A stretch of DNA of 43,359 nucleotides from a virus. Lineage: Duplodnaviria > Heunggongvirae > Uroviricota > Caudoviricetes. Positions 30,157 to 31,030 of this stretch are shown piece after piece. The stretch covers positions 1-43,359 of IMG/VR virus record IMGVR_UViG_2541047745_000011; one strand, given 5' to 3'. The notes beneath the pieces are model-generated. The model ran no database searches and was not told the DNA's origin. It saw nothing but the letters and a program-made list of their open reading frames with translations. Each line of letters starts with the position of its first letter. Position 1 is the stretch's first letter. The translations under genes were made by a program, and so were the position numbers.

Positions 30157-31030
30157 GAACTTTCAGGTAGGTATTATCGTTAAGCAGAAAATCAAATCCC
30201 TTTTTGTGCCAGACAGTTCCGCGTTGATGGTTTGGACGCTCTTCGAACATCCATCGACAATTTTCGCCTACGTAGCTCAAATAATTTCTCCAGTCCTGCA
30301 TCGTGAACCCATGCCCGTCAAGCTGGCGGGTTATCACTCCGGCTTTGCGCCAGAACGTTCGGATCTGGTTTTTACGCTTGTCATTCAGTGCGCGGATTCT
30401 TGGCGCTTCAGGAAGGATTTCGTGGTAAGCATCGACAACATCCTGACAGCTGACGGAAGGTTTTTTCTTGTCAGACTTTTTGTCTGCTGTGGCACTCTCT
30501 AATACGTCAGTATTAGAGATAATATTATTATATTCTTTATCTGTGGTAATTTGCTGGTAATCTGCTGGTACAGTATTGCTTGCAGGCATTGGTATTGCTG
30601 GCTTTGAGGTGGTAATTTGCTGGTAATCTGCTGGTACAAAATTTGACTGATAATCGTCATATTTCTCTACCGAGAAAACTGAGAATTTACCGTGTGAAAC
30701 CCAGTCAATCATGCCGAGTTTTTTGAACTTTCTAAGCAGGTACTGAACGCGATCTGGTTTGAGTCCTGTTTCAAACGCCAGAGAGTTTCTACCGCCAAGT
30801 AGCTTCCCTCTGCCTACCAGAATTTCTCCTGCGTCAGTCATTACATACTCAGGCGTATGCTTTGCTTTGAGGATTAAGTGAACCCACAGATGCGCTGCTT
30901 CTGCGTCCTTGTAAAACGGCACATCCATAATTTTACGGTGCAGCAAGGCATACCCCTTACCGCTGCTTTGATGCGGTTGTTGTAGCCTTCTGGCCTCTCT
31001 GGCTTCGGCTAGATTAGATATGTTACTCAT
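30131..31030 (-). CDS. Replication initiation protein (lambda O / P22 gene 18 position) containing the origin iterons
   Basis: 299 aa; duplicated peptide [10 protein letters not shown] encoded by the iterons; directly upstream of the helicase gene. Confidence 0.7.
30545..30638. repeat. Replication origin iterons: two 28-bp direct repeats GGTAATTTGCTGGTAATCTGCTGGTACA built of ~12-bp sub-repeats, next to an AT-rich tract
   Basis: Exact 28-bp repeat at 30545-30572 and 30611-30638; AT-rich tract at 30505-30540; inside the initiator gene as in lambda ori. Confidence 0.65.

Follow-up and report, generated by a model that had tools for sequence, protein, structure and literature searches.

A putative replication origin of phased 11-nt iterons, an AT-rich tract and a palindrome inside the O-like initiator gene of a P22-like E. 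coli phage

The analysed stretch of DNA, called the window here, comprises positions 1 to 43,359 of the viral record IMGVR_UViG_2541047745_000011 (43,359 nt) and is the genome of a P22-like E. coli phage (Lederbergvirus; CUS-3/HK620-like). An open reading frame on the minus strand at 30131–31030 was assigned to PHROG 345, ‘replication initiation O-like’ (E 8.6e-88), and encodes an O-like replication initiator of the HK022 type with 299 aa. Its 3' end is overlapped by the gene for a DnaB-like replicative helicase of the P22 gene 12 / HK022 ‘P’ type (28705–30156, minus strand), which was matched in Pfam to the DnaB N-terminal domain (8.5e-31) and to DnaB_C (3e-60). The genes follow each other in the order cI-like S24 repressor, cro-like gene, cII, a small homolog of orf48/hkaW, O and DnaB-like helicase, and the locus represents a lambdoid early-right operon.

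Over all 900 nt, the O gene is 98.7–99.3% identical at the nucleotide level to the O genes of HK022, HK620, mEp235 and VT2-Sakai, and this range of identity extends to many Stx1 and Stx2 phages. At the protein level, 1–4 residues differ from O of the HK022/HK620/VT2-Sakai type. The first 128 aa (30647–31030, minus strand) form the N-terminal origin-recognition domain, a predicted winged helix, and a Lys-rich linker together with the C-terminal domain (30131–30495, minus strand) is the presumed helicase-recruiting module. A Pfam search with the O protein returned only a sub-threshold match to DUF7376 and no match to Phage_rep_O, and nothing was found in a PDB sequence search, performed with the single protein and then with a profile.

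The window contains exactly two copies of the 28-mer GGTAATTTGCTGGTAATCTGCTGGTACA, at 30545 and 30611, as had been claimed in an earlier sequence-only reading of this DNA, and the identity actually extends to 30 nt (GTGGTAATTTGCTGGTAATCTGCTGGTACA; 30543–30572 and 30609–30638, with starts 66 nt apart). Since ~1e-9 exact 30-mer pairs are expected in 43 kb of random sequence (own estimate), the pair is not a product of chance. Both copies lie inside the O open reading frame and encode the same peptide twice, which had also been read correctly; they code for O residues 132–163, between the winged-helix and the C-terminal domains. Each copy had further been described as made of ~12-bp sub-repeats. 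Sub-repeats are indeed present, with a length that has to be corrected to 11 nt, the period reported by Tandem Repeats Finder (3.0 and 2.5 copies).

The repeat unit of 11 nt reads TTACCAGCARA on the coding strand and is arranged in asymmetric direct repeats, 3 + 3 units in two clusters. Cluster 1 (30605–30637, minus strand) consists of unit 1, GTACCAGCAGA (30627–30637), unit 2, TTACCAGCAAA (30616–30626), and unit 3, TTACCACCTCA (30605–30615), with the CCA cores spaced by exactly 11 nt. The start of cluster 2 (30539–30571, minus strand) is offset from that of cluster 1 by exactly 66 nt (6 x 11), and the cluster consists of GTACCAGCAGA (30561–30571), TTACCAGCAAA (30550–30560) and TTACCACAGAT (30539–30549). 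The clusters are separated by a variable spacer of 33 nt (30572–30604, minus strand), the first 11 nt of which (AAGCCAGCAAT, 30594–30604, minus strand) can be read as a degenerate fourth unit with its CCA in phase. Degeneracy is also seen in unit 3 of both clusters. Allowing up to one mismatch, seven matches to the 11-mer were counted in the window, where 1.6 are expected, and four of the seven lie in the candidate origin. Inverted repeats were not detected in either iteron cluster.

Directly beside cluster 2 lies an AT-rich tract of 19 nt (30520–30538), with 18 of 19 positions A or T (95%), which is the presumed unwinding site, and this is followed by a perfect palindrome with 10-nt arms and a 4-nt centre (30496–30519; TCTCTAATAC-gtca-GTATTAGAGA). 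The sequence-only reading had placed the origin at 30505–30650 next to an AT-rich stretch: the adjacency stands, the tract proper is confined to 30520–30538, and the start at 30505 falls inside the palindrome. The palindrome itself was absent from that reading. GC content reaches a local minimum of 17.5% at 30500–30539, compared to 47% for the whole window; the tract is short and is not the most AT-rich part of the window, where 43 segments of 40 nt have equal or lower GC. There is no DnaA box near the array, the sole match in the window being at 41601, and this absence is neutral for a lambda-like origin.

For comparison, the array was set against replication origins of known type. Like the window array, the lambda ori sits where the linker is encoded, in the middle of the initiator gene and downstream of cII in the pR operon, and the order of its elements is the same: iterons (30637–30539 in the window; 435–519 in the lambda locus L109), A/T-rich tract (30538–30520; 520–560) and palindrome with a 4-nt centre (30519–30496; 563–590), the latter being GTCAGAGAATTC-tggc-GAATCCTCTGAC in lambda. 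By its place in this order, the palindrome at 30496–30519 corresponds in position to the one of the lambda ori. The iterons themselves differ, as lambda has four of them (ITN1–4), each 18 nt long and dyad-symmetric, compared to 3 + 3 direct, asymmetric units of 11 nt in the window, which do not belong to the lambda type of 18–19-nt dyad-symmetric iterons. BLASTP gave no alignment between lambda O and the N-terminal domain of the window protein, and the hhalign probability was 0.2%; homology to the DNA-binding domain of lambda O could thus not be shown by sequence, and what is supported for the domain is a generic winged-helix fold only. The partner proteins differ as well, lambda using P as a loader for the host DnaB, whereas the window carries the phage's own DnaB-like helicase.

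In P22, ori is likewise found inside the initiator gene (gene 18), a DnaB-like helicase gene follows, and the elements of the origin have the same order as in the window: first the repeats, then an AT-rich tract and then a short palindrome (CCCCCT/AGGGGG). The P22 repeats are four dyad-symmetric sequences of ~20 nt (TTTACC-N5-GGTAAA), and the N-terminal domain of gp18 is not similar to that of the window protein; the C-terminal part can be aligned weakly (25% over 144 aa, E 1e-4), and gp12 is 30.6% identical to the window helicase. Position inside the initiator gene and the order of iterons, AT tract and palindrome, both as in lambda and P22, support the proposal of the sequence-only reading that a lambda-style ori is located inside the initiator gene. 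The comparison also upheld its view that the iterons are unlike known ones, their sequences differing from those of lambda, P22 and Sf6/L.

An identical architecture with other units was found in phages L, ST64T and Sf6, which share with the window the 3 + 3 units of 11 nt, the 66-nt distance between clusters and the AT tract, and whose palindrome and C-terminal domain are the same as in the window or nearly so. The triplets at offsets +12 and +78 are common to the window and to the loci L004 and L005. In phage L/Sf6, however, the unit is TGTCCAACGGW (TGTCCAACGGA; Sf6/L units TGTCCAACGG) in place of TTACCAGCARA, and the N-terminal domain of phage L/ST64T/Sf6 is 45–58% identical to that of the window. 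This comparison points to a sister specificity class with the same architecture. More distant systems resemble the window less closely. The oriL of SPP1 lies inside gene 38; against the SPP1-type replisome organiser (PF09681), the window protein remained below the Pfam threshold (E 0.17). Iteron plasmids (RepA/pi/RepE) have repeats of 17–22 nt and DnaA boxes by an AT-rich region, compared to units of 11 nt, half that length, in the window, and the resemblance is one of logic only.

In HK022, HK620 and VT2-Sakai (U02466/NC_002166, AF335538 and AP000422), the same gene, 30-nt blocks, AT tract and palindrome are present; nothing of substance differs, there being only a handful of point differences, in spacer and C-terminal part. 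The origin is already known in this sense: it has been annotated since about 1999–2001 and published as putative. In AP000422 (VT2-Sakai), the two 30-nt blocks are labelled as misc_binding features, ‘ori iteron 1’ and ‘ori iteron 2’, and these features (2913–2942 and 2979–3008 of locus L001) align exactly with 30543–30572 and 30609–30638 of the window. AF335538 (HK620) has a two-piece rep_origin at the homologous place. In both of these records, each 30-nt block is taken as one iteron, and the AT tract and the palindrome are unmarked. The rep_origin of NC_005344 (Sf6) is described as ‘repeat region reminiscent of the phage lambda origin; similar to phage HK620’ and that of MW013503 (phage L) as ‘putative origin of replication’. 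The GenBank origin features of Sf6 and phage L carry the word ‘putative’, and no record cites an experiment. As the blocks were already annotated, the present finding re-identifies a database feature. In phage L, six imprecise 11-bp repeats in gene 18 were reported as the likely origin (PMC8022706). In the searchable literature, no experiments on the HK022-type origin class were found, and searching papers for the iteron sequences as literal strings returned chance primer matches only.

On the basis of these comparisons, we consider it very probable that the repeats mark the putative theta (bidirectional) origin of an HK022-type lambdoid replication module in a P22-like E. coli phage. Some features speak against this reading: the units lack the dyad symmetry of the proven lambda iterons, unit 3 of each cluster is degenerate, the number of 66-nt blocks varies among relatives, and the AT tract is short. 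A different role would be that of O sites used for regulation (autorepression, titration or handcuffing), with the true origin located elsewhere. Plasmid iteron arrays also act in copy-number control, and no initiation-mapping reports for this phage class were found in the searchable literature, both of which count for a regulatory role. Against it, the array adjoins an AT tract and a palindrome in the order of the experimentally defined lambda origin, and the motif scan detected no second cluster of the 11-nt motif elsewhere in the window. Furthermore, the replication region can be exchanged as a whole between phages L and P22 and its individual genes cannot, from which the authors placed the origin within the region (PMC8022706, citing Hilliker 1981). 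A purely regulatory array is accordingly regarded as unlikely.

The conservation of the putative origin was assessed in 106 related loci collected from GTDB genomes, IMG/VR and GenBank phages. All 102 intact genes carry the array at unchanged offsets; the other four loci comprised three one-block deletions and one decayed gene. The sequence-only reading would have been refuted by repeats that are absent or unconserved, and the opposite was found. In every intact relative, CCA-phased triplets are located at offsets +12 and +78 past KYDD(Y/F)Q, the motif that ends the N-terminal domain, and such relatives come from Escherichia, Salmonella, Enterobacter, Kosakonia, Erwinia, Pantoea, Edwardsiella and others. 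The units fall into at least seven types (TTACCAGCARA, TGTCCAGCCRR, TGTCCAACGGW, TTACCAACAGA, KTGCCAACARA, AATCCAAMGGA and RGCCAACGAAA), all of which have the CCA core in common.

Nucleotide diversity was calculated across 43 HK022-type haplotypes. It amounted to 0.008 in units 1–2 of cluster 1 and 0.010 in units 1–2 of cluster 2, and to 0.127 in the 33-nt spacer (24 of 33 columns variable), where constraint is weakest in the region. In the N-terminal domain, third codon positions had a diversity of 0.112, with 91 of 128 variable, compared to 3 of 14 variable within the units. Synonymous sites in the units are ~6–8 times less variable than in the rest of the gene. The comparative evidence supports a DNA-level function of the units.

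These data also bear on a protein-level explanation, in which a 22-residue module was duplicated in a flexible linker and has no function as DNA. The 66-nt block is in frame and equals 22 codons, its copy number varies from 1 to 4 among near-identical genes, as is typical of linker repeats, and its spacer part is poorly conserved. The conserved element, however, is the 11-nt unit, whose period is out of codon phase, so that the units are read in three different frames, which argues for a repeat of the DNA rather than of the protein. The reduced synonymous variability in the units is likewise at odds with duplication at the protein level alone, and the encoded peptides diverge widely between lineages, whereas the units keep their CCA core, their 11-nt phase and the 66-nt distance between clusters. 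A protein-level duplication is thus judged highly improbable.

Among the relatives, the number of in-frame 66-nt blocks was one (277 aa; L080, L085 and L091), two (299 aa; the large majority), three (321 aa; L029, L030 and many protein clusters) or four (343 aa; P0001). Such variation is the expected product of recombination between direct repeats. The natural variants with one, three and four blocks suggest that a pair of clusters is no strict requirement, unless some of these prophages are defective.

The interpretation as an origin was further examined through the relation between units and initiator domains. Wherever the TTACCAGCA unit occurs, the N-terminal domain shares at least 79% identity with that of the window, and the genes with this unit are 39–100% identical in their last 100 residues and have five palindrome types. 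Units thus co-vary with the N-terminal DNA-binding domain, which supports the distinct initiator specificity that had been suggested from the sequence alone. A deep alignment of the N-terminal domain was built from a profile of such domains, as a search with the single protein gave near-identical proteins only. AlphaFold2 was run on residues 1–130 with a 51-sequence alignment and predicted a winged helix (pLDDT 83), with helices at 43–55, 81–88 and 92–104 and a beta wing at 108–121. Residue 97, which lies in the predicted recognition helix, is Y in proteins with TTACC/TTGCC units, S or A with TGTCC/AATCC and T with GGCC. This correlation comes from few independent lineages and may serve as a lead, not as a result.

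Across the AT tract, unit type and palindrome type reassort. The palindrome TCTCTAATAC accompanies the HK022-type C-terminal domain and was seen with two unit types, and the palindrome ACTTACTACC was seen with three. Sf6, HK75, HK629 and others share with the window only 30131–30540, at 96–98% identity, and the mosaic joint therefore falls in the AT tract, which is its usual place. In the prophages L017 (Pantoea) and L019 (Dryocola), the N-terminal domain of this type and its 11-nt units are fused to a lambda-O C-terminal domain, which in L017 is 69% identical to that of lambda O. A lambda-P-like gene follows in both prophages (48% identical to lambda P in L017), compared to a DnaB-like helicase gene after O in the other relatives checked. 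The C-terminal domain and the helicase module are thus exchanged independently of the N-terminal domain and the iterons. This pattern is the classic two-domain logic of O, shared with the lambda initiator, in which the N-terminal domain would recognise the origin and the C-terminal domain would recruit the helicase system.

To characterise the palindrome, its folding and its covariation were assessed. As a single-strand DNA hairpin, 30496–30519 has a free energy of -7.6 kcal/mol (z -7.6 compared to shuffles). In a MAFFT alignment of 15 lineages, which is gap-free over the palindrome, 96% of cells of the ten pairs were paired, compared to 63% in shuffles (0 of 500 reached the observed value) and to 31–41% when the partner was slid. 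The inner eight pairs were paired in 100% of cells, six of the eight were changed on both sides and one-sided changes were 0. Compensatory changes keep the palindrome paired.

A sequence-specific reading of the arms by the C-terminal domain was considered and rejected as the main reading. The arms ATCTAATAC in L017, with a lambda-type C-terminal domain, and TCTCTAATAC in the window, with the HK022 type, are nearly the same, and near-identical arms beside unrelated C-terminal domains suggest selection on structure or symmetry over sequence reading.

That the palindrome acts instead as an mRNA or antisense hairpin (terminator, processing site or translational pause), with the repeats being incidental, is hardly credible: the preserved pairing, a consensus scan that marks 30496–30519 as a terminator-like hairpin on the plus strand and automatic ‘terminator’ features beside the origin, on the palindrome side, in the phage L record would agree with it, but the 120 inner-pair cells examined contain no one-sided (G-U type) change, which better fits Watson-Crick symmetry of DNA, the stem has 3 G-C pairs only, the tail TAATATTATT has no proper T run, the region has no promoter-like site, an Rfam scan of 30000–31800 found nothing relevant, and neither the 11-nt units nor the way they track the N-terminal domain would be explained. 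The lack of G-T intermediates, promoter, proper terminator tail and Rfam match favours an element acting at the DNA level.

The 11-nt phasing across a broad family, the constraint on synonymous sites and the coupling of units to N-terminal domains strengthen the existing origin assignment, as do the AT tract as exchange joint and the covariation of the palindrome; its category is unchanged.

For the putative origin, we infer the following course of initiation. The winged-helix N-terminal domains of O would bind the six asymmetric 11-nt units (TTACCAGCARA) in the two clusters of three. With units one helical turn and clusters six turns apart, all sites would face the same side of the helix, and one winged-helix domain per unit, arranged head to tail on one helix face, is the best geometric fit. 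The resulting O nucleoprotein complex would destabilise the adjoining 19-nt AT tract, and the C-terminal domain of O would bring the phage DnaB-like helicase, which could then be loaded on the opened DNA. The conserved palindrome, on the side of the AT tract away from the iterons, would belong to the origin, as in lambda; it would probably either form a hairpin, extruded or single-stranded, or set a limit to unwinding.

A more specific version of this model is tentative and, taken as a whole, rather doubtful. It combines a non-lambda geometry, with head-to-tail binding once per turn, with the palindrome as an obligatory hairpin for helicase or primase entry and as the sole origin hairpin for Lamassu and OLD. 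In recent literature, Lamassu and OLD were reported to bind or sense the lambda origin with its hairpin-forming iterons. As the iterons of the window are unable to form hairpins, the palindrome would be the sole origin hairpin open to Lamassu/OLD defence; a consequence of hairpin-less iterons for defence sensing is speculation.

The biochemistry of O and origin that was found for Stx phages concerns lambda-type O only, in phages P27 and 933W (PMC7466680), and the HK022-type origin is therefore a prediction by analogy. The analysis provides testable targets in the 11-nt unit with its CCA core and in residue 97 of the predicted recognition helix, and further ones in the AT tract as a joint of module exchange and in the palindrome conserved as a structure. 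The module drives many Stx prophages of E. coli O157 (VT2-Sakai, Stx1/Stx2 phages and the PA series), in which toxin gene dosage is amplified by phage replication, and the same module is found in many P22-like and lambda-like phages.

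The 66-nt iteron block was found to vary in number, in frame, from one to four copies across O genes that are otherwise near-identical, as compared in the region homologous to window positions 30539-30637. O proteins of 277 aa carry one block (L080, L085 and L091), those of 299 aa carry two, those of 321 aa carry three (related loci L029 and L030 and the related protein P0002) and the 343-aa protein P0001 carries four.

The palindrome at 30496-30519, which adjoins the AT tract, differs in sequence among lineages while its complementarity stays perfect (alignment A3 of the palindrome region, 15 lineages). 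In the same alignment, both sides were changed in 6 of the 8 inner pairs, and a change on one side only was seen in none of the 8. The palindrome lies outside every GenBank origin feature examined. The record of phage L (L004, MW013503) carries automatic ‘terminator’ features at 1810-1903, a stretch homologous to about 30440-30533 of the window that adjoins the origin marked in that record, on the side where the palindrome lies. The window palindrome was itself scored as a terminator in a consensus scan. Such calls, made on the origin palindrome, are probably false.

Residues 96-97 of O (about 30740-30745) fall in the predicted recognition helix. In the protein alignment of O relatives (A4), residue 97 is Y in proteins whose genes carry TTACC or TTGCC units, S or A with TGTCC or AATCC units, and T with GGCC units. 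This residue is a candidate specificity determinant, with few independent lineages behind the pattern. Chimeric initiators were identified in the loci from Pantoea sp. BAV 3049 (L017) and Dryocola sp. (L019), at about 1501-3300, where an N-terminal domain from the O family of the window, together with its 11-nt units, is fused to a lambda-O C-terminal domain (69% identity to lambda O in L017). In both loci the gene after the chimeric initiator is lambda-P-like, in place of a DnaB-like helicase gene, and in L017 it has 48% identity to lambda P.

In one IMG/VR relative (L096), O is truncated to 158 aa, and small deletions and a frameshift scramble the spacer and the second cluster (homologous to window 30500-30640). 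Both the origin and the initiator have decayed in this relative, and the element that hosts them is presumably a defective prophage. Enterobacterial lambdoid O genes were also found in two assemblies with non-enterobacterial labels, a 386-nt Xanthomonas pisi contig (L015) and an assembly labelled Chryseobacterium sp. 18061 (L020). One of the two is 100% identical to the N-terminal domain of the window, and the other combines Sf6-type units with a window-type palindrome; contamination or mislabelling appears likely in these assemblies.

A 119-aa ORF on the plus strand (30143-30502), listed in AP005153 as a hypothetical protein (ORF b66), lies antisense to and entirely within O, and is probably not a real gene. 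Several RefSeq records give the name ‘tail protein’ to the minus-strand homolog of orf48/hkaW between cII and O (31023-31169, 48 aa), which belongs to PHROG 1913, category ‘tail’. This assignment looks like a propagated misannotation because the gene sits in the early operon.
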